Source: a virus. From it: a stretch of DNA of 64,000 bases. The position numbers and the translations under genes are program-made. The notes beneath the pieces are model-generated. The model saw nothing but the letters and a program-made list of their open reading frames with translations. It was not told the origin of the DNA and did not search any database. The stretch's first letter is position 1. The number at the start of each line of letters is the position of its first letter. The stretch lies in IMG/VR virus record IMGVR_UViG_3300017971_000032, positions 13,501-77,500 of that record; one strand, written 5' to 3'. Of the stretch, positions 501 to 48,779 are shown piece after piece.

Positions 501-1340
501 TTGATGTACACTTGGCAGACATTTGGCCGGGAATTGATAGAGACTGAAGACCTGGATCCAGTGTACGTCATGCTAGTGGATTCCAAAGCGCTTATGAATG
601 ATAATCTGTTGAAGCGCTGGTTGCTGGCATATTGGTGCTATTACAGTTGCGGTGTGGCCTCGCGCATAGCGGAGTCGGATGACTTTTATGCATCCATGTG
701 GCAGGGCATTCATGAGAAGTGGCCCAGAGGGATGGAGCGTCGGTACTTCTGGGGTCGGCAGGCTGAGAATGCAATCCAATATCTCCAAGAGTGGGGTGAG
801 CCAGAGGCTGTAGTAGATCATATGACAATCCATGATACGTTCCAGGAAGCATCCGATGCCGTTCAAGAGTTTGTGGGGTTTGGGCCTTGGATGGGCTGGA
901 AGATTGTGGACATGGCTGAAAGGGTATTGGCTATTCCGGTTGACTTCTCTGAATCCACGTTAGGCATTTATAAGGATCCAGTTCAAGGTGCAGCGTTCGT
1001 GCGGTTTGGGGATTGGAAGCATCCTATCACTGAGGCTGAGTTGGATGAAGAAGTCCAGCGCCAGGTGGAGGAGTTCAAAGATCTATTGGCGCCACCATTC
1101 TATGATAGGCCACCTAATATCCAAGAAGTTGAGACTAATTTATGCAAGGCTAAGGCATCATTCAAGGGATTTTACCCGATGGGAAACGACACGTACCATG
1201 TACGTGAGAGCTTGAAGGGTTGGGGTGACTTAGCTCAGGAGCTGTTAGGGTGGTGCCCTAGGATGCGGGATGGGTGGGTGGATGAGGACGGCAACTTATT
1301 GCGGGCGAACAGGGTAGAGGTGGTGGAGACATATGGCTGA
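501..1340 (+). CDS. Amino acid:DNA transferase (alpha-glutamyl/putrescinyl thymine pyrophosphorylase family, clade 2-like)
   Basis: DLDPVY, RWLLAYWCYY, WPRGMERRYF, HhH-like GFGPWMGWK and NIQEVETNLCK motifs; neighbours are radical SAM, PLP enzyme and kinase genes. Confidence 0.75.
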   Translation: MMYTWQTFGRELIETEDLDPVYVMLVDSKALMNDNLLKRWLLAYWCYYSCGVASRIAESDDFYASMWQGIHEKWPRGMERRYFWGRQAENAIQYLQEWGEPEAVVDHMTIHDTFQEASDAVQEFVGFGPWMGWKIVDMAERVLAIPVDFSESTLGIYKDPVQGAAFVRFGDWKHPITEAELDEEVQRQVEEFKDLLAPPFYDRPPNIQEVETNLCKAKASFKGFYPMGNDTYHVRESLKGWGDLAQELLGWCPRMRDGWVDEDGNLLRANRVEVVETYG

Positions 1341-2754
1341 TAATGACAATCATGGGGTGCAAGAGTTTCATAGGTTGAATGAGCCTGTGGGTGAGGGTGA
1401 GGATGAGCATGGTCATTATCAGCTCATACCTTTGAGCATGGTGCGTGGAGGCAAGGCCAAGCCTTATAAAGTGTACACGAAGCCGATGAAGCATTTACTC
1501 AGAGACACTACGCCTGCACCCAGAGGCTGGTACAAGCCAAAGCACCCTGAATCTGACCGTGTGCGGGCAAGACCTTGCTACACTGAAGCACTTCTTACCA
1601 CACCCTATGGTGGATTTTGCCCTGTTAATTGCGCCCATTGCTATGTGAATAACGGAACACGCGGATACCGTGCTACAGGATTGCCGGTGGCACATTACAA
1701 ATATCCGGAGGCAATGCGAAAATGGGTTTCTAAGCTGTCTATCTCTGGTGCTGCATATATTACCTCATTCAGTGAACCGTTTCACTTCTTAGAGCCAGAA
1801 TACCACGTTACGCAGAATCTAGCGCAGGTCTTCATTGACGAGGGTTTGCCGATGTTCTTCCTATCGCGCAAGATTCCGCCTGATTGGGCTATGGATGCGT
1901 TGCTTGAAAATCCATATAGCTATATGCAGTGGAGCGTTAACACATCCAACCCCGATCACTACAGGCGATTCTCGCCAGGCAGCTTTAGTTTGGATGAGGT
2001 GTACGAGGCTATACAGCGCTTCCATGACAATCGCATCTTTGTTAGCATTCAATGCAATCCCATCATAGCGGGCATCACCACGCTCCAGGAGATTGTAGAT
2101 TTGGTGTATGAATTGGAGTATGCGGGTGCTGATCACATCATCTTCAAGTTCGTGGAGCAAGTGGCTAACAATCGCAAGGTGCTGCTGGATGCGTTCCACA
2201 GGCGTGGATTGCCGCATGTGGACGCATTTGACAATCTATTCAGCCAAGTGATTGGTGGGGTGTACACGATTAATGAGGATGTGCGTGTGGAATGGCTGGA
2301 AGTGCTGTTGGAGGAAACACGCAAGGCAGGCTTGACCATGAGCTTGTGCTATGAGTACTATGATGATGGTCATGCTGGCGCCAATTTGGCTCCTTACTAT
2401 ACTACGGCGGATCAATGCCATGGGCGTGGGGTGCCTATATTCTATCGTCCTGAGCCTGGAGCACGCTTCCAACCGTTGCCTGGGTGCTACCGCAAGGGTT
2501 GTCTGTATTGTGAGGAGTACGGCACGCGTGTGTGTGAGAATGATAAATTACTAAGCGCTTCAGATTTTCAGTATAAAGATCTGCGCACTATTCAGATCGA
2601 AGGGCACGAGTCTAATTGGGACTTGCCAGATAGTTGTGTCAGTCCTGATGAGCTGACCTTTCACGATAACTGCACATTTTCGGAACGACTACGGTTTGGC
2701 AATCCGAAGCTACAAACGGATGCTGAGATGTGGGGATGGGATGACGAAGTATAA
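1333..2754 (+). CDS. Radical SAM enzyme (SPL-like), DNA base modification
   Basis: CPVNCAHC (CxxxCxxC) motif, C-terminal CYRKGCLYC; gene context. Confidence 0.8.
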   Translation: MADNDNHGVQEFHRLNEPVGEGEDEHGHYQLIPLSMVRGGKAKPYKVYTKPMKHLLRDTTPAPRGWYKPKHPESDRVRARPCYTEALLTTPYGGFCPVNCAHCYVNNGTRGYRATGLPVAHYKYPEAMRKWVSKLSISGAAYITSFSEPFHFLEPEYHVTQNLAQVFIDEGLPMFFLSRKIPPDWAMDALLENPYSYMQWSVNTSNPDHYRRFSPGSFSLDEVYEAIQRFHDNRIFVSIQCNPIIAGITTLQEIVDLVYELEYAGADHIIFKFVEQVANNRKVLLDAFHRRGLPHVDAFDNLFSQVIGGVYTINEDVRVEWLEVLLEETRKAGLTMSLCYEYYDDGHAGANLAPYYTTADQCHGRGVPIFYRPEPGARFQPLPGCYRKGCLYCEEYGTRVCENDKLLSASDFQYKDLRTIQIEGHESNWDLPDSCVSPDELTFHDNCTFSERLRFGNPKLQTDAEMWGWDDEV

Positions 2755-3484
2755 GGTTTGTAATAAGTGGGATATAGACATACCAGATAGTGCATTGGTT
2801 GCGGCTGATGATAATCCGGGCAGTATTGCCAGGCCATATACATATTATATAGACCATAAGTTGGCGGATATAGGATATCAGGCCTGGTGCCGGGAGTACT
2901 TGTTGAATAATTTGGAAGGTGTACATAGTGTAGTGGAGTACTTTGGTGGTATAGGTGTGGATGCATCTATAGTAGAAGGCACATTCGATTTGGAAGAGCA
3001 TGTTTTATTGGATTTGGATGCCGGATGTGTGGACATTTTGCGCAGAAACAATCCAGAAGCGGAGAGAATAATACAAGGTGATTTTGTGGAATATGCTGGC
3101 ATAAGAGCTGATTTGGCTATATGTGATTTTGAACAATTCACGATGCTGCACATTACCAGAAATAGGAATGGCATGCGTGAGGCATTAGGCAAGGTGCTGT
3201 CAGCTTGCGATTGTTGTATAGTAACTGGCTCAGCAATTAGTAGGATGCATCTGAATGTAGATATATACTCTGAGGCTTCTGACATGCTTGTGAGGGACGT
3301 GTTCACATATATGCAAGCCATGTCTCATTGCTTTTATGATTTATATGGTTTCTGTGTGGGCATGGTGGCTTATGGGCCTCATGCATCGTTCATTACACTT
3401 CTTCCTGGCAAGCATGACTTATGCAATGCTGCATGTATAAAGGCTCCTAGTAGTGCTAGGGATAGTTTCAGGAGAATGGGATGA
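2741..3484 (+). CDS. Class I SAM-dependent methyltransferase-like protein
   Basis: VVEYFGGIG (motif I), LLDLD, IIQGDF; start moved to ATG 2741, overlapping the previous gene. Confidence 0.6.
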   Translation: MTKYKVCNKWDIDIPDSALVAADDNPGSIARPYTYYIDHKLADIGYQAWCREYLLNNLEGVHSVVEYFGGIGVDASIVEGTFDLEEHVLLDLDAGCVDILRRNNPEAERIIQGDFVEYAGIRADLAICDFEQFTMLHITRNRNGMREALGKVLSACDCCIVTGSAISRMHLNVDIYSEASDMLVRDVFTYMQAMSHCFYDLYGFCVGMVAYGPHASFITLLPGKHDLCNAACIKAPSSARDSFRRMG

Positions 3485-4350
3485 TGCATGACATGGTTTG
3501 TAGTTGGGAGCCTAGTTCTGGCAATGATAATCTTGTAGTGTCCAACACGCCCTGGGAAGTCTATAAGATAGATGGTGTGCCTGTTCATGTCAAGCGTGAG
3601 GATTTGTGTTGCCCACCTCCTGGGCCCAGTTTCTCTAAGATACGTGGTGTCAAGGCATATTTGGAGGAAGTGCCAAATGATACAGTTGTGGGCGTGTTGG
3701 ACACGATCCATTCCAAGGCTGGTTGGGGTGTGGCGTACGTATGCAATGCCTTGGGCTTAGAGTGCGTGGATTTTTATCCTGTATACAAACATGAGCCTTG
3801 GGAAACTGTGAGGCCTATACAAGCCAAGGCTAAAGAATTGGGAGCCACTTTGTATCCTATGAAGGCTTGGCGCTCCTCAGTGATGTATGGCAGGGCGAAG
3901 AAGATCTTAGATAAGATGGCAGATGATCGGGCACTCATGATGCCTAATGCTCTTAAGCTTCAAGCTACTGTAGATGCTACTGCAGAGGAGGTACGGTTGT
4001 ACACGCCCCAAGAATGGATGAGTGGCACTTGGATAGTATCCATATCGTCTGGCACAATAGCAGCTGGCGTGCTGAAAGGTTTGGGTGGCAATGATAATGT
4101 TTGCGTGATCGCTCATATGGGATATTCACGCAGTTCAGATTATGCCCGCAAGTATATGATAGACATGGCCAAGGGTGATGTACCATCAGACATATTGATA
4201 ATAGATGAAGGGTACGAATACACTGATTCAGTGAAGGAGAGTTGTCCATTTGAATGTAACAAATTCTATGATCTCAAGGCTTGGAAGTGGTTGAAGGGTG
4301 TTGTTGCTTCAATTGACCAACCTGTCATATTTTGGAACATAGGAGATTGA
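3481..4350 (+). CDS. PLP-dependent enzyme (fold type II), likely on-DNA decarboxylase
   Basis: VKREDL...FSKIRG (PLP lysine), SISSGTIAAG, YDLKAWKWL, IFWNIG. Confidence 0.8.
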   Translation: MMHDMVCSWEPSSGNDNLVVSNTPWEVYKIDGVPVHVKREDLCCPPPGPSFSKIRGVKAYLEEVPNDTVVGVLDTIHSKAGWGVAYVCNALGLECVDFYPVYKHEPWETVRPIQAKAKELGATLYPMKAWRSSVMYGRAKKILDKMADDRALMMPNALKLQATVDATAEEVRLYTPQEWMSGTWIVSISSGTIAAGVLKGLGGNDNVCVIAHMGYSRSSDYARKYMIDMAKGDVPSDILIIDEGYEYTDSVKESCPFECNKFYDLKAWKWLKGVVASIDQPVIFWNIGD

Positions 4351-4351
4351 C

Positions 4352-4600
4352 ATGGACATTACCAGCATCAGGGCTGAAGGTTCGGACAAGCATGTTGTAA
4401 TCAATGTGGATGGCACTGGTGAGGATTTATCCAAGTTGGGTGTGAATATCAGCGCTTTGAGATATGATCAGTGGTTCAATGTAGATTTGCAGGTATACCC
4501 ATCTACCTTGGACAAGATCATGCATGTCGAAGCTATTCCGCAGGAGCAGAGAGATCACATTAGACAGTTGGTGGAGGCAGGACATGGCGACGAAAGCTAA
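4352..4600 (+). CDS. Hypothetical protein
   Basis: Fills the operon gap; GGAG upstream. Confidence 0.55.
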   Translation: MDITSIRAEGSDKHVVINVDGTGEDLSKLGVNISALRYDQWFNVDLQVYPSTLDKIMHVEAIPQEQRDHIRQLVEAGHGDES

Positions 4601-4766
4601 TGATCAAGGATTTGAGGATGGCTTGTTGGGCAGACGCAGGCGCAACAGGCACAGATTTGAGCCGGAGAAGGCAGCTGACTACGATACTGGCTACGATGAT
4701 GCCGTGTTGAGATTGAAGGAGATTGGGCGTGGCAGGCCAGTGCGTGTGCGACATTTGACTGGATGA
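4584..4766 (+). CDS. Small hypothetical protein (GFEDG...YDTGY pattern)
   Basis: GGAGG RBS before ATG 4584; tightly packed in the operon. Confidence 0.5.
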   Translation: MATKANDQGFEDGLLGRRRRNRHRFEPEKAADYDTGYDDAVLRLKEIGRGRPVRVRHLTG

Positions 4767-4770
4767 TAAT

Positions 4771-5367
4771 ATGGCCCTACTAGGTATATATGGCCCGCAT
4801 GCAGTAGGTAAGACTACTGCTATGGACAGACTAATTGATAAAGTGGAAGGCAGGCCTGTCACTATCATCAATGCTGATAACAATCTGGAGCGCTGGTGGA
4901 ATGATAACAGTCTTGAGGAGATGCGCCACAAAGGTCGTGGTTGGTGGAAGGGCAAGGCTGAGGGCAAGCGTGCGCTGTGTGCAGACCTTATAGCTGATGA
5001 TATGCGCTTATGGGTGCTGGAGAGTGTGCGCTTCGACACTCACAAGGGCATTGCCCAAGCATATCAGGACTATGATGGTGGAGCACATGTGATATTCTTG
5101 GTTGCACGTTGGGATGTATTCGAATCATTCATGATAGAGCGCAACGAAGCTAATGGCAGAGAGTTCAATTATGATTATTGGACGCAATCCAAGCTGGCCT
5201 ATGAAGGATATGCTAGGTACATCAATCAGGCTCACAAGTACTTCGATCCATATGGAGTGCCATATGATGTAATTGAGGTCAGTCATGACCGGCATGAGTG
5301 GTCGGAGATTGATGAGCTAATTTGGATGCAAGTGATGAAGCCGTTGGATAGGTGGTATAATGGCTGA
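4771..5367 (+). CDS. P-loop nucleotide/DNA kinase
   Basis: N-terminal Walker A GPHAVGKTT; NMP-kinase-like length. Confidence 0.7.
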   Translation: MALLGIYGPHAVGKTTAMDRLIDKVEGRPVTIINADNNLERWWNDNSLEEMRHKGRGWWKGKAEGKRALCADLIADDMRLWVLESVRFDTHKGIAQAYQDYDGGAHVIFLVARWDVFESFMIERNEANGREFNYDYWTQSKLAYEGYARYINQAHKYFDPYGVPYDVIEVSHDRHEWSEIDELIWMQVMKPLDRWYNG

Positions 5368-5515
5368 GATTGTAATGAGTGTGATCCTATATCTGGCAGC
5401 TAAATGTTTGATATGGATAGGGTTGTTGCCAGACACTGAATCGGCAATTTTGCTATTATTGTGCCTAGTGTTTGTAGTACTGTCAAACCTCAATTTGTCA
5501 GGGGATTCAGCATGA
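5360..5515 (+). CDS. Small membrane protein (51 aa, absent from the ORF track)
   Basis: Two hydrophobic stretches; overlaps the previous stop and ends in an ATGA overlap with the next gene. Confidence 0.55.
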   Translation: MAEIVMSVILYLAAKCLIWIGLLPDTESAILLLLCLVFVVLSNLNLSGDSA

Positions 5516-6147
5516 AGCTTGTTCAGATAAAGGGTAGCAATGGTTCAGGAAAGACCACTATAGTCAAGCAGATGCTGGAGTTGGATCCAGATGCTTACTA
5601 TTTGGAATATGATGGCATGATAATCGCAACTGTCATGCCTACGGTGCGGTGGATTGCTGTAGGCAAGTATGATCTTGAATCGAAGATGGGTGGTTGTGAT
5701 AGGTTGTCTAGTGTGGACAAAGTGAAGGATGCTATAGACAGATCGTTGGATTGGGCATGTGAGTTGTCTGATATGGAACCTATGTATGGGATTGTGTATG
5801 AGGGTATGATGATAAGCACCATTAAGACGACTTTCTATGATTATGCTGTCTTAATGGCAAGTCGTTATGATGTGGATCCGTTGTTCGTAATATTAAGCGC
5901 TTCTCCGAAAGGGTGTATGCATCGCATACAAGATCGTGGTACAGCACGCAAAGACCTTAACCATGATAATGTGGCTAACAAGTGTTTGATGGTAAGACGT
6001 CATGCCTTAACGTATGACCCTGAGCTTGTGAGGTGGATGGATGTGGAGCGTATACCAGAGGCTTATATGTTACAAGCCTTTGCGGCATTGGTAGGAGATC
6101 ATGATTTGGTTGCCAGGTTGGTCATAGGAGCAGATTGGGGTGAATAA
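5512..6147 (+). CDS. 5-hydroxymethyluracil DNA kinase-like P-loop kinase
   Basis: QIKGSNGSGKTT, GKY...GGCD, IVYEG motifs; context. Confidence 0.75.
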   Translation: MKLVQIKGSNGSGKTTIVKQMLELDPDAYYLEYDGMIIATVMPTVRWIAVGKYDLESKMGGCDRLSSVDKVKDAIDRSLDWACELSDMEPMYGIVYEGMMISTIKTTFYDYAVLMASRYDVDPLFVILSASPKGCMHRIQDRGTARKDLNHDNVANKCLMVRRHALTYDPELVRWMDVERIPEAYMLQAFAALVGDHDLVARLVIGADWGE

Positions 6148-6895
6148 CATCGAAGTAGGATACATGACCAGTACAGAACATCTCATGTCAATGACAATCT
6201 ATGGTGAATCGTTAGATAGGGATAATGTGCCAACGTTTCCTAATGGTTGGCGTTTAGATCTGTGTGGAGAATGTAATGGGGCCAATGGGGGTTGTCCTGT
6301 AGGCGGGGCACCTCATTATCACCAGCTGAAGTCATCTATCCAAGGCTTTTATGTATTGGTGGTACGCTTTGATATGGTTTGGGCTATCAAATATGGTGGT
6401 GTGGGCAAGGGTGTGAGGCAGTCTAATTACTTCCGCTCTGGGTACGCAGACCGTCTGACAGATTGGTATACATGGAGGCTGTTGCGTAGGCTTGAGGAGA
6501 ATGCTAGTGCTTACAGCTTAGGATGTGGCAATTGTCCCAAATGCTCTCCCAAGAAATGCACTGTCATGACTGGTGCCAAGTGCTTATATCCCGATCAGCG
6601 CAGATACTCAGTAGAGGCTGTGGGTGTGGATTGCTCATCCTTGCACAATATGCTGTTTGGGCATCGTTTGGCTTACTGGTACTATGAGGAAGAATTGCCT
6701 CAATACATGTATCGTTATAGCGGGCTATTTGTGGAGGATGATGTGTGGGATTATGTAGTAGAGGCAGTATTGGCAGATGCTAGTTACAATGACAATCTGC
6801 CTGAGCCGCATGGCTTGCAGAGTGTGGAGTGCGAAGCGCCAGAGGGAGTATATGATGAGGGCATGGCATACCAGGGATACTTGCCCAAGTCCTGA
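6140..6895 (+). CDS. DUF2284-like Cys-rich metal-binding protein
   Basis: GCGNCPKC..KC......CLYPDQRRYSVEAVGVD pattern. Confidence 0.6.
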   Translation: MNNIEVGYMTSTEHLMSMTIYGESLDRDNVPTFPNGWRLDLCGECNGANGGCPVGGAPHYHQLKSSIQGFYVLVVRFDMVWAIKYGGVGKGVRQSNYFRSGYADRLTDWYTWRLLRRLEENASAYSLGCGNCPKCSPKKCTVMTGAKCLYPDQRRYSVEAVGVDCSSLHNMLFGHRLAYWYYEEELPQYMYRYSGLFVEDDVWDYVVEAVLADASYNDNLPEPHGLQSVECEAPEGVYDEGMAYQGYLPKS

Positions 6896-7433
6896 TAATT
6901 ATGTATGCCAAGAATGTGGTTTGTATAAGGGGTTAAATCACCCATTTCAGGGCATGGTAGGCAATGACAATCCACAGATATTGGCGGTGGCAGAGGCTCC
7001 CTGATGTGACACGGAGGAGGTGGGTACCACCTTCATAGGTCGTTCGGGAGAGATACTGCGTAGCGCAATGAAAAAGTTAGGCATGGATGATGTAACAGGT
7101 TATATCAATGTAGTGCGATGTCATCCACCCAACAACAAGTTGCCTGCCAGGTGCGCTAAGTTGTGCGCTAATTTCCTGAGACATGATCTCAAAGCTTTGG
7201 ATGTGGAGGCAGTGATGGCATTTGGAGCTACGGCATCCAAAGCTTTGATGGCACCAGACAAACCTCCGCATGATTGGCCTGGTGCCATATATCAGGTCAA
7301 TGAGATGGCGCATAGACATTTGTTGTTATTGGCATATCACCCAGCATACATTCTTCGTAGGCCTGGTTTGAAGGAGCAGTGGATGAGTGATTTGAGGCGA
7401 TTCAAAGCTATGTGGAGGAGTTGCTATGGCTAA
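6852..7433 (+). CDS. Family 4 uracil-DNA glycosylase-like protein with in-frame TGA at 7002-7004 (recoded codon or pseudogene)
   Basis: Track ORFs 6777-7004 and 7020-7433 share one frame: CQECGL...AEAP*CDTEEVGTTFIGRSG...INVVRCHPP...YHPAYILR; GGAG before ATG 6852. Confidence 0.8.
7016..7034 (+). promoter_or_regulatory. Candidate bacterial SECIS-like hairpin
   Basis: GGAGGTGG-GTA-CCACCTTC begins 11 nt after the in-frame TGA; loop G and U fall at +23/+24 counting from the U of UGA. Confidence 0.45.
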
Positions 7434-7617
7434 GAGACATGTTCAGCAAAGTCTTAAAGTGATTCAGAAAAGGTGTTCTGTATGCGGACGCGGTATGAGA
7501 TGGGAGGCGGTACGTAACAGGTGTGTGAGAGCAGGCACTAATAGAATAGTGCAAGATGGATTGTGGGTTTGCACTAATGCTGAGTGTGGTGGTGACGATG
7601 TTAACAATGAAAAGTGA
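7426..7617 (+). CDS. Small zinc-ribbon protein
   Basis: CSVCG...WVCTNAECG; GGAGG RBS. Confidence 0.55.
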   Translation: MAKRHVQQSLKVIQKRCSVCGRGMRWEAVRNRCVRAGTNRIVQDGLWVCTNAECGGDDVNNEK

Positions 7618-7930
7618 TCAATCTGCCCACATGGCTGACCGTGTCCACGTTGAGGTGGAGCGTTCAAGGTTGGAGAGTATAGCTTACCGTGTCATCAATC
7701 TTGTGATGCGCAAGAATGCGGACTATGGTGACGCGTGGCAACGTCAGGGCATTAACGGAGCCATGGTGCGATTGGCTGACAAGCTTTACCGCATTGACAA
7801 TCTGTCTGATGGGCGTGAGGTGTTGGTGCAGGAGGAAAGGTTGCTGGACACGCTGGTAGATGCTATCGGGTATGCTATGTTAGGCATATTATACCTTCAA
7901 GATGCGGGAGTGTTGGATGACAGTGAATGA
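7598..7930 (+). CDS. DUF1599 / nucleotide-modification-associated domain 1 (MazG-like fold)
   Basis: RKNADYGDAW, VRLADKLYRI, DTLVDAIGYA; start uncertain (7598 or 7607). Confidence 0.75.
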   Translation: MLTMKSDQSAHMADRVHVEVERSRLESIAYRVINLVMRKNADYGDAWQRQGINGAMVRLADKLYRIDNLSDGREVLVQEERLLDTLVDAIGYAMLGILYLQDAGVLDDSE

Positions 7931-10535
7931 TAATATTGGTTGCGCAGCCTGTGGTTTATGTGATCAATGCAAGTGCCCTAATATGCCCCCAGGCGAATAC
8001 TTCGATGACTACTGCGATATAATGTTTGTGGGGGAGGCTCCTGGCGCTACGGAGGATGATCAAGGCACCCCATTCGTAGGCAGATCTGGGAAGTTGTTAA
8101 GGGATGCTGTAGATTCTATAGGTCTATATAAATACGGGTACGTGTTTACTAATGTCGTACGCTGTCGCCCGCCCAACAATAAGACACCTACTAAGCGCCA
8201 AATAGGCTACTGTTTGCCTATATTGAAGGATGAGATTGAGCAATACCAGCCTAGGTTGATAATCTTGTTAGGTGGCACTCCGCTTAATGCGGTTCTAGGT
8301 GAGTCAATCGTCACCAATTGGCGAGGTACATTGATTGAACGTGATGGGTTAACATACTTGCCAGTGTTTCATCCGGCATACATCCTTCGCAATACATCAG
8401 CACTAGAAGAATGGGTGAAGGATCTTGAAAAAGCCAAATCCTTTTTGAGTGGTGATGTAGGTACTGGCAATGTGTCAGATGAGTATGAGTTGACGTTGAT
8501 AGAGACTGATGCACAAGCCCAAGATATGTACAAGACTATCAAGTCTATAGGCTTTTGTGCCTGGGACACGGAGACCAATGGGTTGCGATATGGGGACGAG
8601 CTGGTGATGATGAGCTTTGCAGTGGATGAGCCTGTCAAGCGTGCGTGGGCTGTACCAGTGCCGGGTTGCAATAAGGTGTGCAAGAGATTGTTGCTGGATC
8701 CTGACGTGTTGAAGGTGGGGCACAACATTAAATTTGATGTGTTGGCCATACATGGCAATTGGAATGTAGAAGTGCAGGGTATTGTAGGTGACAGCATGTT
8801 AGCGTCTTATGTGCTAGATCCAGTGCCAGGACGTCATGGTCTCAAGCCTTTGGCGGGCAGACATTTGGGTATGTATGATTATGCCAAGAAGCTGGAGGAT
8901 TATCAGGCATTACGCAAGGACACTAATCCTAAGTATGGTGGGGATTTGAGATTGGTGCCTACGGAAGTGTTAGCGGAGTATGCTGCTTTAGATGCTGTGG
9001 CCACATTAGAGTTGGAGTGGCGATTGTTGGATGATATGGAGGATGAGCAAAAGATAGTGTATGAGCAACTGCTCATGCCTGCTTCTGCTACATTCAGCCA
9101 TTTGGAAATGAATGGTGTTGTGATTGATGAATATTTAGTGGAGCGTTACAAAGCTATTTATGCAGAAGCCAGGGATGCTAGATTAGACGAGTTAAGATCT
9201 GATGAAATGATAGTAGCGTATCATAAGTTCAAGGTCAGACATGGGTATGATAAATTTGAGTTCAATCCTAATTCATCCTATCAGATGAGGGATGTGTTGT
9301 ATGGTTGTGTTGTATGTCCTGAGTGCCATAAGACTGTTGCTAATGAAAATGTGAATCAGGGGCGTAGGCATGAGTGTGCTAAGTGTGATACTAGATTTGC
9401 GGCAACCAAAAGCACAATGTTCAAAGGCTATGGATTAGGTATTACAGTCAAAACCAGTACTGGCAGGCCTTCCACTGGTTGGGATGTATTGAAAGAGTAT
9501 GTGGAGGAGTTGCCAATGCTGACAGTATATCGTCAGTACAAGTTGTTGGGTAAGATGCTGTCCACATATTTGGAACCGGCTATAGGGTGGAAGGATAAAG
9601 ACGGGCGTGTAAGGTCTGATTATAAGATTCACGGCACGGATACTGGCCGTGCCAGTAGTCGCAATCCCAATCTCCAAAACATTCCCACGCCTGAGAAGGA
9701 GCCTGGTACACTTTTGCAGTACTTGCCTATTAAGAACATCTTCACTTGCACTTGGCCAGAGGGTGGATGTTTGCTGTGTGCGGACTATAGTGGTATGGAG
9801 TTGCGCACGATGGCATCAGTATCAGAGTGCCAAGGTATGATAGACATATTCCTGCGCGGAGAAGATTTGCATTCTATCGTGACTGAGTTCTTGTATGATA
9901 TAAAGCGCGAGGATTATACACCAGAGGAGTGGAAGCCAATACGGTATAGAGCTAAGTGGACTAATTGGACGTTGCTGTTCGGTGGGAGTGCATACACACT
10001 CCACAGGTTGTACGGACTTGATAAAGAAGAGGCTGACCGTTTAGTCAATAGGTATTATGACTTGTTCCCGGAGGTATTGGAATACAAAGAGCGCACATTG
10101 GCTTTTGCGCGTGAACATGGATATGTAAGATCTATGTTTGGAAGGCGCAAATATTTGCCTTATATCAATGATTGGCATGATGGTAAACGTAAGGCAGACG
10201 AGCGTGCTGGCATAAATATGCCTATACAGAGTTCAGCCTTTGATGTGTTGTTATGCGCAATGATAATATTGGATGAGTGCATGTGTGATGCTAATATGCG
10301 TTCCTTGATAGTCAATACAGTCCATGACTCAATTATGTTTGATGTGTATCCTGGTGAGTTGGAGGAGTTAGCAGGTTTGTGTGGGGATGTAATGGAAAAA
10401 GTAACGAGTGTGTATGGGCCTGAAAGATTTCCAGGGCTGGACTTCTCGTGGTTCACCGTTCCACTGGTGGTGGACATGGAGATTGGCACACATTATGGAT
10501 CTTTGACAAAGTGGGGGGCAGAGAGTGGATTATAG
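7917..10535 (+). CDS. polA: Family A DNA polymerase with N-terminal UDG-4 domain and 3'-5' exonuclease
   Basis: GEAPGATED/HPAYILR (UDG); DTET, GHNIKFD, YAALD (exonuclease); TGRASSRNPNLQNIP, ADYSGMELR, RYRAKWTNW, VHDS (polymerase). Confidence 0.95.
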   Translation: MTVNDNIGCAACGLCDQCKCPNMPPGEYFDDYCDIMFVGEAPGATEDDQGTPFVGRSGKLLRDAVDSIGLYKYGYVFTNVVRCRPPNNKTPTKRQIGYCLPILKDEIEQYQPRLIILLGGTPLNAVLGESIVTNWRGTLIERDGLTYLPVFHPAYILRNTSALEEWVKDLEKAKSFLSGDVGTGNVSDEYELTLIETDAQAQDMYKTIKSIGFCAWDTETNGLRYGDELVMMSFAVDEPVKRAWAVPVPGCNKVCKRLLLDPDVLKVGHNIKFDVLAIHGNWNVEVQGIVGDSMLASYVLDPVPGRHGLKPLAGRHLGMYDYAKKLEDYQALRKDTNPKYGGDLRLVPTEVLAEYAALDAVATLELEWRLLDDMEDEQKIVYEQLLMPASATFSHLEMNGVVIDEYLVERYKAIYAEARDARLDELRSDEMIVAYHKFKVRHGYDKFEFNPNSSYQMRDVLYGCVVCPECHKTVANENVNQGRRHECAKCDTRFAATKSTMFKGYGLGITVKTSTGRPSTGWDVLKEYVEELPMLTVYRQYKLLGKMLSTYLEPAIGWKDKDGRVRSDYKIHGTDTGRASSRNPNLQNIPTPEKEPGTLLQYLPIKNIFTCTWPEGGCLLCADYSGMELRTMASVSECQGMIDIFLRGEDLHSIVTEFLYDIKREDYTPEEWKPIRYRAKWTNWTLLFGGSAYTLHRLYGLDKEEADRLVNRYYDLFPEVLEYKERTLAFAREHGYVRSMFGRRKYLPYINDWHDGKRKADERAGINMPIQSSAFDVLLCAMIILDECMCDANMRSLIVNTVHDSIMFDVYPGELEELAGLCGDVMEKVTSVYGPERFPGLDFSWFTVPLVVDMEIGTHYGSLTKWGAESGL

Positions 10536-12310: not shown

Positions 12311-12438
12311 GCATGGATCTAACTACTAGTGTAGGGCTGTTCAAATATGGTTGGACGGGTGTGATTATCATTATGATTGTGGCAGTGTCTGTGGGGTTAG
12401 ATTTGCTGAGCAGATATATTAGGAGCAGGTTGGAATGA
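12301..12438 (+). pseudogene. phnE: C-terminal fragment of a PhnE-like ABC permease
   Basis: GGIGMDLTTSVGLFKYGWTGVIIIMIVAVSVGLDLLSRYIRSRLE*; ends in an ATGA overlap with the next gene. Confidence 0.7.
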
Positions 12439-13151
12439 TTGGAATTGTATTAGCAGCCGGCAAATCTGAACGTATGAGTGGTGCAATGAATAAGTGCATC
12501 AAACCTTTGGATGGTGCTGGCCACACGATGTTAGGCAGAGTGATTAGTCAATTGCGCAGCTTGGATGTGGCTCCTGTTGTAGTAGTAGGTTACCAGGCTA
12601 AGGCTGTCATGAAGCGTTACTGTGCCAAGGCCACATTTGTCTACAACCCTGACTATGAATCCACAGGCAGCCTGTATTCTCTTTGGCTGGCGTTGAAAAT
12701 TATATATGATGTCAGTGATGTGGTGCTGGCTTCTGGATCTAATATAATTACAGCCTACACCTTGCGCAATATGATGCGCATTGAGGTGCCGAAAGGTGAC
12801 AACATTGCTGTCATGTATCCTTACCCTCATGGCCAAGCTGGTGCCCGCAACATATATCATCGTGTAGTGACTTCTGTGGAGAATGGCGCATTAAGGCATG
12901 ACATAGCAGAAACAGCTCCTCGTGATGAGTGTCCCGAATGGTGTGATGAGAGCATGGCATACTCTCAATTTGGGATAGCCAACAGATTATATTTGTTGCA
13001 TCACATACCGTATGTGCCTGGTTGGCGTACTGCTAGTGTAGGCAAAGCTTTAGCAGGATTCCAGGCTATGAATGTGGGTGTACATGACACGCTAGATGTT
13101 AACACACAGGCAGATTTTAGGTTGGCCAAGGAATGGTTTGGATATGGGTAA
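12435..13151 (+). CDS. NTP transferase (LicC/phosphocholine-cytidylyltransferase-like)
   Basis: IVLAAGKSERM..NKC, VVVGYQA, YNPDYESTGSLYSL, DVNT..D. Confidence 0.8.
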   Translation: MIGIVLAAGKSERMSGAMNKCIKPLDGAGHTMLGRVISQLRSLDVAPVVVVGYQAKAVMKRYCAKATFVYNPDYESTGSLYSLWLALKIIYDVSDVVLASGSNIITAYTLRNMMRIEVPKGDNIAVMYPYPHGQAGARNIYHRVVTSVENGALRHDIAETAPRDECPEWCDESMAYSQFGIANRLYLLHHIPYVPGWRTASVGKALAGFQAMNVGVHDTLDVNTQADFRLAKEWFGYG

Positions 13152-13917
13152 GATCGCTATCATAGCTGCGGCTGGATGGAAGGGTACCAGTTCAGTCTTT
13201 CCGGAGATTGACAAAGGCATACCTGAGCCGTTGTTGCCTTGCCACGGACAGACGTTGCTGTCTAGGCAAGTGTGTCAGTTGAGGTGTGCTGGGTATTACA
13301 CCATTGCGGCCATAGGACAACCAGGTAGCATATACGCGCAGTGGGCAAGCTTAAGGTTGCGTGAAGGTCATATTGATGTGTCAGGCACTTATGAAGGCAC
13401 TAGACCGCCTGGGCCATGGACTTGGCAGAGGGTGGATTATGTTAGATCTATAGGGGCTGTGCCTGTGTTAATACAGCACCCTGGCTGTCATAACAGCTTC
13501 GATACGGTTACTCAGTGTATGGATATGGTAGGCTATAGTCAGTGGGATGAATTACTGGTAACCTTTGGAGATTATATATTTAGTAATGAGTTACTGACTG
13601 CAATGTTGGAGTTGCCTGCCCCAGTCCAGATTTGGATGGGTGAAGTCAAGGGTGCGCTTCATCATAAGTTCTTGAGATTGAATGTGGAATGTGCCAAGGC
13701 TTATTATGAGTTGCCATCATACGACCAAAACAAAGTAGGACACACATCTCACAATGATAAAGTGCGCAAGGTCTTGGAGGAATTAGGAGCGCCAGTTATA
13801 AATGCGGAACAAGCATTCAAACGTATATACAAACATGGCGAGTATGGTTGGATGGATATTGACTTTCCTTCCAATTATACCAGATTGAGACAGTGGGTAA
13901 AGGATGGTAAGATATGA
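13144..13917 (+). CDS. Divergent nucleotidyltransferase
   Basis: IIAAAG, IPEPLLP..GQTLL, TFGDYIF, MDIDFPSNY. Confidence 0.65.
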   Translation: MGKIAIIAAAGWKGTSSVFPEIDKGIPEPLLPCHGQTLLSRQVCQLRCAGYYTIAAIGQPGSIYAQWASLRLREGHIDVSGTYEGTRPPGPWTWQRVDYVRSIGAVPVLIQHPGCHNSFDTVTQCMDMVGYSQWDELLVTFGDYIFSNELLTAMLELPAPVQIWMGEVKGALHHKFLRLNVECAKAYYELPSYDQNKVGHTSHNDKVRKVLEELGAPVINAEQAFKRIYKHGEYGWMDIDFPSNYTRLRQWVKDGKI

Positions 13918-14789
13918 TAGCTGCTGGATCTGTGAACGTAACGTATCCTGTTCGTATACATGAGGATGCGGACATTTGGGTGTCAGACCATTTGTCCATA
14001 GGCCAGTACACAGTCATCAAGTCCGGGTTCAAGGCCAAGTGTCGCAGTTTGACAATCGGACGTCATTGCTATATCCACGAGGGTGTAGAGATCGGGTTTG
14101 GCGGATGTATGGGCTTGAATGCGCATGTTCACATAGGTGATTATGTAGGCATCTTCCAAAACACGCATATTAACTGTGCGGAGCCTGTCTATATCGGTGA
14201 TTGCTGCGGTCTGGGGCAGGAAGTGAAAATCTGGACGCACGGCACCTGGTTGCCGGTGGCGGAGGGATTCCCTCCGCAGAAGCAGGAGCCGGTGCGCATT
14301 GGTGATAAAGTATGGCTACCCGCACGCACGCAGGTGTTGGCAGGTGTGGAGATTGGTGATAATGTGGTAGTTGGCATCAACTCACTGGTTAACAAGTCAT
14401 TGCCATCAGGATGCTTTGCTGCTGGCATTCCTGCCAAAGTGATAAAAGAGAATGTATATCCTAAGCCTTTGACCACTGAGGAGTTAATGCAAGTTGCACG
14501 TGAATTGTGCGCTGGATATTTGCCCATAGCGCAGGATAAGGGGTTTCAGCCAGATTGTCTTGCCCCGTATTTGGATACAGACAATGGGCATGTGTACATA
14601 GACTTCCAGATGAGTGAGGGCGAGGGTGCTGTAGAGTTTGATTTGAGTGACCCTAGTGCTACATATTTGCCTGGCATTAGTGAGTATGAGGAGGATTTTA
14701 GGGATTATTTGCGTCGCAACGGTTTCAAGTTTCACAATGGCGGTTTCTTCAAATCCATGTTGCCGACAAGGTTCACTGAGGTACGTTGA
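13914..14789 (+). CDS. Hexapeptide-repeat (LbH) sugar acyltransferase
   Basis: IGRHCYI/IGDYVGI/IGDKVWL/IGDNVVV repeats, IWTH, AGIPAKVIK. Confidence 0.9.
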   Translation: MIAAGSVNVTYPVRIHEDADIWVSDHLSIGQYTVIKSGFKAKCRSLTIGRHCYIHEGVEIGFGGCMGLNAHVHIGDYVGIFQNTHINCAEPVYIGDCCGLGQEVKIWTHGTWLPVAEGFPPQKQEPVRIGDKVWLPARTQVLAGVEIGDNVVVGINSLVNKSLPSGCFAAGIPAKVIKENVYPKPLTTEELMQVARELCAGYLPIAQDKGFQPDCLAPYLDTDNGHVYIDFQMSEGEGAVEFDLSDPSATYLPGISEYEEDFRDYLRRNGFKFHNGGFFKSMLPTRFTEVR

Positions 14790-15448
14790 TGTCGAAAGCC
14801 GAATTTATGGGATACAAAGATGTAATATGCCTGTCCCCACATCCTGATGATGTAGAATATGGCATGTATGGCACGGTGTTGTCCTGTCCTGGCACTACCT
14901 TTTGGATTATCGTAATGAGCCAGGGTGCTCCATCTAATCCTACCTATGGTAAGGTGAGGCTAGAAGAAGTCACCAGGTGCTGGAAGGGTGTGCACAATAA
15001 GACATTAATATTCACAAATGCTAGCAGTCTAATGTCTTTGGCGGAGCGTGAGTGGATTGGCAAGTTGGAGCATGATTATTCAGATGTGCTAGGTATATGT
15101 AGTACTATGATAGTGCCGCCGTTAGATGATGACCATTATGAGCATTCGCTAGTGTCCAGAGTAGGTCGTGCTATTGCCAGATCTAATGCCTATGGGTTGA
15201 TAGAATATCGCACTGCCAGTGCTAGGGAAAGTTGGACACCTAATTTAGTGGTGGATATTACAGACAATTATGTTGCCAAGCGTCAGGCTATGGTGAATTT
15301 TCAAAGTCAGGCCAAGCATGGCTACTTTTCGCAAGCTGGTTTGAATGCCTTTCACATCCATTATGGCGCATCCAGGCGTGGGTATGGTACATGGCATGAG
15401 TTGTTCAGAATAGTGATGATGTATATGGGGGGAGGCAATAATGATTAG
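14786..15448 (+). CDS. PIG-L/LmbE family deacetylase
   Basis: SPHPDDVEYG, DDHYEH, VDIT...KR.A...FQSQ. Confidence 0.9.
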   Translation: MMSKAEFMGYKDVICLSPHPDDVEYGMYGTVLSCPGTTFWIIVMSQGAPSNPTYGKVRLEEVTRCWKGVHNKTLIFTNASSLMSLAEREWIGKLEHDYSDVLGICSTMIVPPLDDDHYEHSLVSRVGRAIARSNAYGLIEYRTASARESWTPNLVVDITDNYVAKRQAMVNFQSQAKHGYFSQAGLNAFHIHYGASRRGYGTWHELFRIVMMYMGGGNND

Positions 15449-16109
15449 CAGACCTAATGGGCAGGCTTCTGTAGATGCCATAAAGCATTCTGAGCATATA
15501 CCAACGTATGGCAGTCAGTTGATGTTGTTCCATGATGCTATACGTAGTGCTTTAAAAGGCACGCGTGGGGCGATAGTTGCAGAGTTTGGCGTGTACAAGG
15601 GCAAGACGTTGCAAATGATTAGTGACAGACTGCGATGGCATAACATACATTGCAATCTGTATGGCTTTGACTCATTTCAAGGCTTGCCGGAGGCATACAC
15701 GCCTTATTATGGCAAAGGGCACTTCAATGTGAGTGAATCAGATATGGAACAGGTGCGGCGTGACGCTATGGCTTGTGATGCGTGTCTTATTGAAGGTTAT
15801 TTTCAAGACACGCTTGAGTCATTTTTGTTTACGCATCCAGGCCAGTTCAGATTCGTGCATATGGATGCTGATTTATATCAGCCTACTAAATATGTTTTGA
15901 GTACATTGATGGATTGGCATAGACTATTGCCAGGCTCAGTTATACAGTTCGATGAAATGTTTTATGTCAAGCCAGATGATGGACGTTGGTATTGGGATGA
16001 ATATAAGGCTTGGACAGAGTTTGTATACAGGTATAACATCAAGTATGAGTGGATAGGATCCTACACTCAACGAGGGGCTGTTATGTTGTGGGAGGTAGGG
16101 AATGAGTGA
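15441..16109 (+). CDS. TylF/MycF-family O-methyltransferase
   Basis: EFGVYKG, GFDSFQGLPE, GYFQDTL, HMDADLY, FDE. Confidence 0.9.
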   Translation: MISRPNGQASVDAIKHSEHIPTYGSQLMLFHDAIRSALKGTRGAIVAEFGVYKGKTLQMISDRLRWHNIHCNLYGFDSFQGLPEAYTPYYGKGHFNVSESDMEQVRRDAMACDACLIEGYFQDTLESFLFTHPGQFRFVHMDADLYQPTKYVLSTLMDWHRLLPGSVIQFDEMFYVKPDDGRWYWDEYKAWTEFVYRYNIKYEWIGSYTQRGAVMLWEVGNE

Positions 16110-17238
16110 CTATAACCAATTTGATTGTCACCGCAGATTCATCTCGGCCGACAATGGATCGGTTGTGGACAATTTCTGGGATGCATTGCCCTCAGACAAG
16201 ATGCTGACATTGGATCCAGATTATGTGTTTCCGGTGTTTGATATAGGCACATATCGTACCTTGTTCAGTGAGGTGGACGTGGCATTGCCTTTTGATGCGC
16301 TTACTGACAAGGAACTGGAGTTGGTGAAACTGCCTAACGGTTCTAATGAATGTAGCAAGGCTGAGTTGATTAAATGGTGGGGTGATGCTATAGTCGATCA
16401 TATATATAAGGCTTGGGATCCTACTAAATTTCATTTAGTGTTTCACAGCAGTGGGTGGGACAGCCGTGCGGTGTCTGGGGCTGTGTGGCGGGGTGTAAGG
16501 GAAGAGTTAGGTTGGGATTGGGATTGGGATGACGTGCTGTTTGTATGTATAGGGCCAGAGAGTGACGAATTCAAGTGTATTATGGAATACGAGGGTTGGG
16601 AAGACTATCAGTATGTGGCAGTAACTGATATGATTAGCCATTATGATAGGTGTTTGGATTTTCACGATGCTTGGCAGTGGTTGAATGGCCCCATCAACCT
16701 TGGATATAATATGAATTGGGTGTTGATTGAGCATTTGCAGCGCGAGGGATTGGTGCCTGAGCATGATGATGACATCCAACTATTTACCGGACGCAATGAC
16801 GTAGTGTTTGAAGTTAGTGCTGGATCTGATTGTACACTTAAACGAGATTATCTTCACAACTACAGCGCTGTTACCAGTTCTGTGTTGTACAAGGTTGACG
16901 ATTTGGTGTTGCCTCTTATGTCGTATGATGTGGTGCGCACGTTGGCCACATCCACAGCGCGTGTGGGTTATGCCTCCATGCGTCGAGATCTGGTGGCTTA
17001 CATGGATGAAGGTCTGGCCAAGTTCAATCGCATTCAAGATCCGTTCCCAACTATGGAAATAGGGCAGCATGAGCGAGCGATTCAGGATTACAAGGAATCG
17101 TGGTATGGTCAGAATGTGCATCCATCGTTGAAATCATCATCCGCTATATTGTCATATGATGAGTGGTGGAGCAGATGGACGTGTGCTGTTATTGTGGAGC
17201 ACTTGTTGGAAGAAGGCTATGACATCACAATTGGCTAA
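16102..17238 (+). CDS. Asparagine-synthase-like ATP-pyrophosphatase (amide-forming) protein
   Basis: PP-loop-like VFHSSGWDS; no clear glutaminase domain. Confidence 0.5.
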   Translation: MSDYNQFDCHRRFISADNGSVVDNFWDALPSDKMLTLDPDYVFPVFDIGTYRTLFSEVDVALPFDALTDKELELVKLPNGSNECSKAELIKWWGDAIVDHIYKAWDPTKFHLVFHSSGWDSRAVSGAVWRGVREELGWDWDWDDVLFVCIGPESDEFKCIMEYEGWEDYQYVAVTDMISHYDRCLDFHDAWQWLNGPINLGYNMNWVLIEHLQREGLVPEHDDDIQLFTGRNDVVFEVSAGSDCTLKRDYLHNYSAVTSSVLYKVDDLVLPLMSYDVVRTLATSTARVGYASMRRDLVAYMDEGLAKFNRIQDPFPTMEIGQHERAIQDYKESWYGQNVHPSLKSSSAILSYDEWWSRWTCAVIVEHLLEEGYDITIG

Positions 17239-47195: not shown

Positions 47196-47198
47196 CAT

Positions 47199-48779
47199 AT
47201 GCCACCACGTCAATGGGAGCCAATAGTTGAAGATTTCTCTGTGGTGATGAAGAAGGTACACCTTCTCTTTCGCCGTGATCAAGTGGACATTGAAAATATA
47301 TATGCCGAGATCTTCCGTGAGAAGCGTGAGGCCTACGAGGATGGATTGGCAATCCAAGCAGCTAATGTAGGATGTGCTGGCAGACGTGGCATCACTCCGC
47401 CTGATGTGATGAAGGAAATTAGTGATGAGGCTCACACGGAGGCAGCTGGCATAGCTAATACATACAACTACGATTTGGCTTTGGCTGTGAGGGCCATTCG
47501 TACTGAGACGCCACGTGCCAACCGTTGGACATATGCTAAACGTTTGGGTGAGTGGGAAGCCACGCGTGACGAGTGGAAGAGCAAGCAAATATCGCTGTGG
47601 AATCAGATGAAGTGGCAAGACCGTGCCACACGTGATTTCATGCAACACAACCCACAAGCATTGAAGGGTTGGGCCAAGGTTGAGCCATCTGGTCGCGCAG
47701 TTTGCGATGTGTGTCAATATTGGGTCAATCGGGGCAAGGTGTCCATAGATGAGACACGCAAACAAGAATGGCCAGCTCATCTGAATTGTCCTCATTATTG
47801 GGATGTGCATTACACAGGCAAGGTGGATTGCAAGGAGCTGTGGCTTGGCGCACCATTGCGTGAGTGGTGGGAGGGCAAGGAGATTGGAGAGAAAGGTGGC
47901 CCTGGTTCTGGTAACTGGGGACACGCAGGTCGTCCTGGAATGGTAGGTGGTAGTGCTAAGCGTAGCGTGGCCATGTCTATCAGAACTGGTAGAGATTGGC
48001 AGGAAAGACAACAAGCAGCCAAGAAGATGGCCGAAGCTCAGAAGGCATCTGTGGCTGGTGTGGAAGGGGAATGTAAGCGTGCTATTGATGAATTTATTGG
48101 GGACATTAGTTATGGCCCAGGTGCTTTTGATAATCTGGTAGAGATAAATGATGACGACATTAAAGCCATGTTTGGATTGGGTCATATGGATTATAGGGCT
48201 GATATTAAGGTGATCACTGTGGGAGAGCATGGCAATGTGACCAGACTTGAGATAGATTATTATGATGCGGATGGATCTACAGTAGCCAATGTGGCAAGAG
48301 AGTTGCGCAGGATGGGTGGTGAGGAATGGATGGCATACAACGAGCTGTTGGATGTAATGCCTGAGTATCAGGACAAGGGCATAGCAACCAGTTTGTATAA
48401 TAGGCAGATATACACATTAAGGAATGCCGGTGCATCTGAAATTCAATTATATGCTAATATATCTATAGGACGTTATGCATGGGCCAAAAAGGGGTTTGAT
48501 TATAAGGAAGGCAGCAAGAAATATACGTTGAGACGGGTCAATAGCAATTTTAGGAAATGGGCAGATGACAAGGGCATTCCTGAGCCTTCTGGGGGTTGGC
48601 CTACATTTGATTCAGCCCATAGCGTAGCCACATATAGTCACCCCACTCACACAGTGAAAGGATCGGACATATACAATGATGATGTGGCTGATGATTATGT
48701 TATGCACTTAGGCAAAGCGTTCATGTTGGAATTGCATCACGGGCATGGGCCATGGAATGGCGTATTGAAGTTGAACTGA
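47199..48779 (+). CDS. MuF/SPP1 gp7-like minor head protein fused via the tag to a GNAT acetyltransferase domain
   Basis: VCDVC...PAHLNCPH (MuF C-terminal motif); V.PEYQDKGIATSL...YAWAKKGF (GNAT). Confidence 0.75.
   Translation: MPPRQWEPIVEDFSVVMKKVHLLFRRDQVDIENIYAEIFREKREAYEDGLAIQAANVGCAGRRGITPPDVMKEISDEAHTEAAGIANTYNYDLALAVRAIRTETPRANRWTYAKRLGEWEATRDEWKSKQISLWNQMKWQDRATRDFMQHNPQALKGWAKVEPSGRAVCDVCQYWVNRGKVSIDETRKQEWPAHLNCPHYWDVHYTGKVDCKELWLGAPLREWWEGKEIGEKGGPGSGNWGHAGRPGMVGGSAKRSVAMSIRTGRDWQERQQAAKKMAEAQKASVAGVEGECKRAIDEFIGDISYGPGAFDNLVEINDDDIKAMFGLGHMDYRADIKVITVGEHGNVTRLEIDYYDADGSTVANVARELRRMGGEEWMAYNELLDVMPEYQDKGIATSLYNRQIYTLRNAGASEIQLYANISIGRYAWAKKGFDYKEGSKKYTLRRVNSNFRKWADDKGIPEPSGGWPTFDSAHSVATYSHPTHTVKGSDIYNDDVADDYVMHLGKAFMLELHHGHGPWNGVLKLN
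47892..47954 (+). repeat. Peptide tag copy 3 of 6 (inside MuF-like protein)
   Basis: KGGPGSGNWGHAGRPGMVGGS. Confidence 0.97.

Follow-up and report, generated by a model that had tools for sequence, protein, structure and literature searches.

The stretch examined here (the window) is 64,000 nt of phage DNA, bases 13501 to 77500 of a complete 77.5-kb IMG/VR phage record (IMGVR_UViG_3300017971_000032; phage G000 below) with 123-bp terminal repeats, and the subject of this work is a gene in it for a family 4-like uracil-DNA glycosylase (UDG)-fold protein that is interrupted by one in-frame UGA codon, which probably specifies selenocysteine (Sec; U in motifs). The open reading frames (ORFs) at 6777..7004 and 7020..7433 share one frame on the plus strand, and TGA 7002-7004 is the sole interruption between them. 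The gene and its features, among them a hairpin resembling a Sec insertion sequence (SECIS), are as follows.

6842..6848, plus strand: Shine-Dalgarno (SD) sequence GAGGGAG, preceding ATG 6852/6855
6852..7433, plus strand: gene for the UDG-fold (family 4-like) Fe-S protein; 193 codons, one of them UGA
6906..6917, plus strand: CxxC (C19, C22), the first two Fe-S ligands, upstream of the UGA and in near-invariant columns of a 56-sequence alignment
6990..7004, plus strand: motif A/1, A-E-A-P-U in place of G-E-(A/G)-P-G, with UGA 7002-7004 as codon 51
7005..7015, plus strand: spacer of 11 nt, codons C-D-T-E (the last one partial)
7011..7013, plus strand: codon T54, which aligns with the thymine-excluding Glu47 of Thermus UDGa
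7016..7034, plus strand: SECIS-like hairpin, 8-bp stem 7016-7023/7027-7034, loop GUA 7024-7026 (G at +23, U at +24)
7338..7358, plus strand: motif B/2, HPAYILR, in which H163 aligns with the leaving-group His155 of Thermus UDGa

The read-through product gave a single Pfam UDG match (PF03167; E value of 2.8e-17, 63.5 bits against a cut-off of 24.3) over residues 61 to 203 of P0001 (P numbers denote proteins), and this match covers the TGA, which falls at residue 76 of P0001. The alignment around the break is ungapped, with AEAP-[TGA]-CDTEEVGTTF facing GEAPGATEDDQGTPF in the UDG domain of the phage's own polymerase, which is the nearest paralog in the genome and is 35% identical to the UDG-like protein. 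A preliminary description of the window had proposed that two UDG halves lie in one frame and are split only by this TGA, with the other motifs and the Fe-S cysteines intact; the ORF map and the single Pfam match bear out the first point, while motif B reads HPAYILR and all four cysteines (C19, C22, C90, and C105 in P0155 numbering) occupy near-invariant columns of the alignment. The probable start of the gene is ATG 6852/6855, and a GGAG-type SD lies ~6 nt before the N-terminal start in every TGA-containing ortholog (L019:512, L020:2510, L016:4863, and L022:1051; L numbers denote contigs). The presence of an SD and a start ahead of the N-terminal half in every TGA form is a point in favor of Sec.

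TGA was found at the identical codon in five contigs from separate metagenome assemblies: the window, L019, L020, L016 (=L021; the contig of a related 77.7-kb phage, G001), and L022. These forms make up three lineages with 48 to 64% amino acid identity. L019 and L020 (61 to 64% identity to the window) read AEAP-TGA-CDTEEVGTTF, and L016 and L022 (48 to 49%) read QEAP-TGA-RDVEKVGPTF. Two further relatives, L023 (=P0157; gene at L023:1255-1866) and P0005 (35 to 38%), are uninterrupted and read GEAV-Cys-Cys-D, which aligns without a gap to AEAP-U-CD. The canonical GEAPG appears in more distant relatives, namely, L024, P0010, and 13 viral loci. In a quick maximum-likelihood tree, the five TGA forms group together (support of 89), the two Cys forms join them as their sister group (93), and the Gly-form P0010 branches outside both (98*). 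The subfamily is sharply bounded, with scores in protein searches dropping from 153 to 108 bits at its edge. Database proteins that begin right after the break (P0004, MGTTF...; P0006, VEKVGPTF...) suggested a shared stop, and the DNA of the contigs confirmed that it is a shared TGA. Scans of viral contigs with P0001, P0005, and P0013 yielded no orthologs, the P0013 scan giving only L027, an ordinary Gly-form polymerase fusion, and a scan of genome contigs gave no hits. L018 was considered as a subfamily member and rejected as a distant GP-S form outside it.

The preliminary description had cautioned that the interrupted position aligns with Gly rather than Cys, and it had named close homologs with GGA or Gly and no hairpin, or a G at position 7002, as outcomes that would speak against a Sec codon. 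The Cys residue at this site in the sister clade (L023 and P0005) removes the caveat. Neither outcome was found: all five orthologous contigs (5/5) have the TGA followed by the hairpin, and T is present at 7002 in the contigs of two sequencing runs.

Comparison of the TGA lineages gave saturated synonymous sites (pS of 0.69 to 0.82) and a pN of 0.28 to 0.40 both before and after the stop. Purifying selection acts on each half of the gene. Saturated synonymous sites together with low pN in both halves imply that the UGA has been kept for a long time by selection and that the 43 to 50 codons preceding it are translated. Just past the UGA, codons +1 to +5 differ among the window, L019, and L020 by three substitutions, all synonymous and in third positions, and Asp at +2 is retained in all clades.

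These data bear on whether the UGA is a genuine feature of the gene. It could be an assembly or sequencing error, or the gene could be a decaying paralog in which a GGA-to-TGA nonsense change struck a redundant copy of the polymerase UDG domain; canonical UDGs do carry Gly (GGN) at codon 51, and an intact UDG domain lies 900 bp downstream. Yet the same TGA recurs in five contigs from different assemblies despite their divergence, dN/dS is well below 1 on both sides of it, and the 35% identity to the polymerase domain is too low for a recent duplicate. Logan contigs from two runs, belonging to two studies, also carry T7002, at ~16x depth and with zero differences over 6700-7500, although either run may be the source of the window DNA. 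We consider error or decay highly improbable.

A genome-wide alternative code, in which UGA is read as Gly (table 25) or Trp (table 4), would restore GEAPG-like chemistry, and a Gly reading would match the canonical residue. However, TGA is the commonest stop in this genome, where it terminates 49 of 82 long ORFs, and it does not occur in frame within the 877 codons of the polymerase. Moreover, the sister clade has Cys rather than Gly at this position. ARAGORN detected no tRNA genes in G000, and the single tRNA gene of G001 encodes tRNA-Ile(TAT), so that a phage-encoded suppressor tRNA or tRNA-Sec was rejected as a candidate. With TGA an ordinary stop and no tRNA genes in the phage, whole-genome recoding and decoding by a phage suppressor tRNA can be ruled out, and an alternative code is scarcely credible. 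Even taken together, a pseudogene and an alternative code remain very improbable.

The hairpin begins 11 nt after the TGA, and this spacer has the same length in all five TGA forms (5/5). The stem is 8 bp long (7 bp in L019) and is capped by a GUA or GUC loop, the first two bases of which are always G and U. Its local folding energy ranges from -10.7 to -12.9 kcal/mol across the five TGA forms (-11.9 kcal/mol in the window). At the same place, the Cys form folds to -1.2 kcal/mol, the 13 Gly-form loci (distant UDGs from the viral-locus scan, used as controls) have a mean of -4.7 and a best value of -8.8 kcal/mol, and one of these 13, the UDG domain of the phage's own polymerase, at -2.2 kcal/mol, has no hairpin at the equivalent position. 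Thus, all TGA forms outrank 14/14 controls (one Cys form and 13 Gly forms). Within the genome, the window hairpin is in the best 2.4% of equal-sized segments and is the strongest of 39 in-frame TGA contexts. The 8-bp hairpin that the preliminary description had drawn 11 nt past the TGA, with G and U at +23/+24, was therefore recovered in both sequence and folding. An extended lower stem that would pair the UGA itself in the window was dropped, as it was not reproduced in L020 or L016.

Across lineages, stem pair 7 goes from G-C to U-A and pair 2 from G.U to A-U; the stem shows one compensatory pair and two one-sided changes overall, and 97.5% of cells are paired. The codons within the hairpin are identical at 7/7 positions between the window and L020 (P = 0.003) and at 6/7 between the window and L019 (P = 0.027), compared with a background of 43%. 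On the sequences compared, this suppression of synonymous change is independent support for the hairpin. The geometry of the hairpin fits the published description of bacterial SECIS elements, in which a 6- to 8-bp stem carries a conserved G in its loop, ~20 nt past the UGA (PMC4605307).

A conserved stop followed by an RNA structure could also mark a split gene, in which ribosomes stop at the UGA and restart at a nearby in-frame GTG, a 50-residue peptide with the first Fe-S ligands and motif A assembles noncovalently with a 137-residue C-terminal piece, and the hairpin tunes the coupling between them. In public data, precisely these GTGs have been called as the starts of the C-terminal piece (P0002, P0004, and P0006), and selection on both halves is predicted here as well. 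Nor does the identity of the stop discriminate: because only three lineages are available and 60% of the stops in the genome are TGA, finding TGA in all three would not be improbable if any stop were allowed. The restart position is not conserved, however; the GTG at codon +6 of the window lineage is GTT in L016, which has its GTG at +3. The GTG lies inside the stem, at a distance of 0 to 2 nt from its SD. In the window, GTG 7020 directly touches GGAGGAG (7013-7019), in agreement with the preliminary description, which had denied it a properly spaced ribosome-binding site. In the window lineage, a split gene would leave codons +1 to +5 untranslated, yet they change only synonymously among the window, L019, and L020, and Asp at +2 persists in every clade; the break would also fall within catalytic motif A. 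Restarting also leaves unexplained both the Cys at the exact residue in the sister clade and the loss of the hairpin there. We regard a split gene as unlikely.

Readthrough that is independent of SelB shares more of these predictions. Here, a near-cognate tRNA (Trp or Cys) would decode the UGA at some frequency, stimulated by the hairpin, and a regulated low level of full-length protein would result. A conserved UGA with a downstream structure is equally the signature of programmed readthrough, and Cys in the homologs is compatible with decoding by near-cognate tRNA-Cys. What argues against it is that the geometry is specific to a SECIS (an 11-nt spacer, a 7- to 8-bp stem, and G-U at +23/+24) and recurs in lineages whose stems differ, and that filling an active-site position by low-yield readthrough would bring no apparent benefit over the Cys codon found in the sister clade. 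Such readthrough is quite unlikely in our estimate.

Another TGA in the window also precedes an in-frame ORF. The portal-like gene at 44676-47195 stops at a TGA, and the next gene (ATG 47199, 526 aa) lies in frame two codons on, such that readthrough would fuse the two. This arrangement (47193-47201) is probably mere adjacency; there is no downstream hairpin (-1.7 kcal/mol).

We next consider the protein itself. AlphaFold2, run on the read-through product with the 56-sequence alignment, predicted one domain (pLDDT of 90.7, pTM of 0.87), and the top Foldseek matches were the family 4 UDGs 1l9g, 4zbx, and 1ui0 and UdgX (TM scores of 0.72 to 0.81). The residues that align with N80, N89, and H155 of Thermus UDGa are conserved, H163 and P164 are invariant, and the pocket Asn and Phe and the catalytic His/Asn are retained; motif definitions, including the leaving-group His155, follow published work (PMC10359453 and PMC5387724). 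Motif A departs from GE(A/G)PG throughout the subfamily, reading AEAP-U in the window, L019, and L020, QEAP-U in L016 and L022, and GEAV-C in the Cys forms. The fifth position of this motif is Gly in UDG families 2 to 5 and Tyr in family 1 (PMC10359453). A second change lies close by. Glu47 of Thermus UDGa blocks thymine by approaching its C5 (PMC5387724), and the corresponding residue (ungapped; HMMER alignment to 1l9g) is Thr in the window lineage, Val in the L016 lineage, and Gly in the Cys forms, while the Gly-form sister P0010 keeps Glu. With Sec at codon 51, Sec replaces the motif A loop residue that faces C5 of a flipped pyrimidine. Taken together, Sec or Cys in motif A and the loss of Glu47 indicate a pocket that is open on its C5 side throughout the Sec/Cys subfamily, with a selenol or thiol positioned at the opening. 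From the alignment, the loss of Glu47 suggests a different substrate. The preliminary description had envisioned a Sec-Cys pair in the base-binding pocket; the U-C pair is present in the window, L019, and L020, but it is not universal, since L016 and L022 read U-R.

Several observations weigh against a selenoprotein or against a special role for its selenium. tRNA-Sec, SelA, and SelB were not found in the phages, neither of which encodes selA, selB, selC, or selD. An in-frame GTG lies 3 to 6 codons past the UGA in every lineage, making reinitiation physically possible. The collections searched contained no more than three independent TGA lineages and two Cys sequences. Covariation in the stem was not significant against shuffles, of which 57/500 scored as high with three lineages, and the hairpin overlaps conserved codons (E-x-V-G-x-T-F). 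The hairpin shares its 11-nt spacing and its loop G23/U24 with the SECIS of E. coli fdhF, but the latter has a bulged U; the perfect stem and 3-nt loop found here, with no bulged U, are unlike it. No Rfam SECIS match was obtained for L001, L019, L020, or L022 at E values up to 10, which is weak evidence, since these models are lineage specific. In the protein, the adjacent Cys is missing from the L016 lineage, and the glycosylase residues (N95 and H163) are retained, so that plain glycosylase chemistry is compatible with the active site and would leave the need for Sec unexplained.

On balance, a conserved UGA with Cys in the sister lineage, always followed by a SECIS-type hairpin, makes it most likely that the gene encodes a selenoprotein, and we favor UGA 7002-7004 as a Sec codon with good but not full confidence. 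We infer that decoding depends on SelB and that selenium is incorporated. Ribosomes would start at ATG 6852/6855, and with the UGA in the A site, the hairpin at 7016-7034 would stand at the mRNA entrance, where host SelB carrying Sec-tRNA(Sec) would be recruited. The product would be one 193-residue Fe-S protein of the family 4 UDG fold with Sec at the fifth position of motif A.

The UDG-like gene is the last of an operon-like array, which is followed by genes for a DUF1599 protein and the UDG-polymerase fusion. Its neighbors include enzymes that act on 5-hydroxymethyldeoxyuridine (5-hmdU), S-adenosylmethionine (SAM) or pyridoxal phosphate (PLP) families, and DNA polymerase.

501-1340, plus strand: amino acid:DNA transferase (ADDT), Pfam PF18724
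1333-2754, plus strand: radical SAM protein, Pfam PF04055
2696-3484, plus strand: unassigned ORF between the radical SAM and PLP enzymes
3481-4350, plus strand: PLP enzyme, Pfam PF00291
4771-5367: P-loop protein
5461-6147, plus strand: 5-hmdU DNA kinase (5-HMUDK), Pfam PF18748, E value of 9.2e-22
6140-6895, plus strand: DUF2284 predicted metal-binding protein, Pfam PF10050, E value of 2.5e-8
7556-7930, plus strand: DUF1599 protein, Pfam
7902-10535, plus strand: UDG-DNA polymerase A fusion, Pfam, the canonical GEAPG paralog

The 5-HMUDK, ADDT, radical SAM, and PLP genes all lie within 501-6147 and amount to the gene set of an M6-type cluster, with extra genes. These Pfam assignments confirm that the enzyme is embedded in a DNA modification cluster, as the preliminary description had it. 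G001 also carries HMUDK, ADDT, and PALP, with the TGA-form UDG-fold gene beside them; in both complete phages, then, the UDG-like gene adjoins ADDT, PLP, and 5-HMUDK genes. The end of the DUF2284 gene overlaps the UDG-like gene by 44 nt (a translational overlap), and a DUF2284 neighbor is also found in L020.

Some details of these neighborhoods differ. The DUF2284 gene of the window terminates in tandem stops, TGA TAA (6893-6898), within the N-terminal coding part of the UDG-like gene. In L020, an N6/N4 DNA methylase gene (1025-1795) is inserted between the 5-hmdU kinase and DUF2284 genes and has no counterpart there in the window. An 835-aa ORF with an intein (PF14890; E value of 3.4e-12) occupies the position between ADDT and the PLP enzyme in G001 (L016:815-3322), which is the radical SAM slot in the window. 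The neighbors of the Cys form are different (L023:256-3669; a dCMP deaminase, two Dam-like N6-adenine methyltransferases, and a 5'-3' exonuclease), and the 4.4-kb L023 contig has no 5-hmdU kinase. At the other end of the gene, a 63-codon ORF with two zinc-ribbon-like CxxC pairs (7426-7617) overlaps the stop of the UDG-like gene (ATG 7426, TAA 7431-7433); it had no Pfam match. Farther on, after the replication genes (12435-17238), lies a run of sugar-nucleotide-type genes for a MobA-like NTP transferase, a hexapeptide acyltransferase, a PIG-L deacetylase, and a TylF-like methyltransferase, which could contribute to further modification of DNA or of virion glycans.

The sequencing runs that contain window DNA are sediment and seawater metagenomes, and there are no RNA runs among those listed. 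For inference of the host, there was no nucleotide match to cultured phages, and the portal had no match; the polymerase and helicase match those of phages of many hosts at no more than 35% identity, and no cultured phage is close to the window.

What might a Sec-containing UDG-fold protein do in this setting? In the M6-type pathway, the chemistry proposed for the transferase is attack of an active-site thiolate on C6 (PMC8989533). The location of the gene beside a 5-hmdU kinase/transferase operon in both phages, together with this thiolate chemistry, led us to propose base flipping and a role for the selenolate. By analogy, the protein would flip a C5-substituted uracil (5-hmdU, its phosphorylated form, or an amino acid adduct) out of the phage DNA, and the selenolate (thiolate in the Cys forms) would act on the C5/C6 edge as one step of thymine hypermodification. 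In two of the three lineages, the adjacent Cys (U-C or C-C) could provide the resolving thiol. In its full form, the proposal is that of a selenium-dependent DNA-base-modifying enzyme that no longer performs simple uracil excision: within polymeric DNA, the selenolate attacks bases derived from 5-hmdU, either at C6 or at the 5-methylene carbon, a selenenylsulfide or disulfide (U-C or C-C) resolves the intermediate, and the outcome is an undescribed hypermodification step or base. We offer this chemistry tentatively and consider it rather doubtful as a whole. A glycosylase of altered specificity, acting on 5-hydroxymethyluracil, thymine, or pathway intermediates, is a live alternative, given that the glycosylase residues are retained.

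If the codon does specify Sec, selenoproteins are not confined to cells and a few poxviruses, a bacterial virus exploits the SelB system of its host, and that host is constrained to a Sec-using bacterium. Genes of this kind would then be split or overlooked systematically by standard phage gene calling. A protein with Sec or Cys in motif A, at the residue that faces C5, and with no thymine-excluding Glu would join the UDG superfamily and represent a catalytic solution new to this intensively studied scaffold. Thymidine hypermodification, which has been studied as anti-restriction chemistry, would gain an enzyme directly testable in the published M6/ViI in vitro systems, and selenium-dependent base modification would tie phage DNA chemistry to host selenium metabolism.

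To our knowledge, the UDG fold is not among the selenoprotein families, and full-text literature searches returned no report of a bacteriophage-encoded selenoprotein or of a Sec-containing UDG-family protein. The poxvirus glutathione peroxidases are the sole viral selenoproteins listed in a 2021 review of recoding (PMC8310308). Those of molluscum contagiosum and fowlpox viruses (PMC8310308) are likewise virus encoded and need the Sec machinery of the host, as we infer for the present protein. They differ in being captured cellular genes of eukaryotic viruses with a eukaryotic SECIS, whereas the phage gene has a bacterial-type hairpin within the ORF and no cellular selenoprotein counterpart.

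Among UDGs, the protein shares its fold, PF03167, the four Fe-S cysteines, and motif B HPAYILR with family 4 enzymes (1ui0, 1l9g, and 4zbx) and UdgX. Family 4 enzymes have GE(A/G)PG and Glu47, in contrast to AEAP-U/QEAP-U and Thr, Val, or Gly here. In UdgX, too, a changed active-site residue suggests a changed reaction, but the R-loop His of UdgX is absent. The window polymerase (7902-10535) is of the same type as the UDG-DNA polymerase A fusions of the hypermodified-thymidine phages SP-15 and YerA41 (bioRxiv 10.1101/2025.03.26.645540); its fused domain has GEAPG and Glu47 and no hairpin, while the stand-alone gene belongs to a separate clade. M6-type clusters (PMC8989533) share the 5-HMUDK, ADDT, radical SAM isomerase, and PLP decarboxylase types that lie just upstream of the UDG-like gene in the window. 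The terms "UDG" and "DUF2284" have 0 occurrences in PMC8989533, and a Sec/Cys UDG-fold protein would be an extra step.

The closest parallel in decoding is with bacterial SECIS/SelB genes such as E. coli fdhF, which likewise combine an in-frame UGA, Cys homologs, and a hairpin in the ORF directly downstream. The present gene differs from them in being encoded by phages that have no sel genes or tRNA-Sec and in its perfect stem and 3-nt loop. The insertion mechanism itself would thus be the known bacterial one; the novelty would lie in a phage making use of it, in the protein family involved, and in the placement of Sec in the active site of a UDG-fold protein within a DNA hypermodification pathway.

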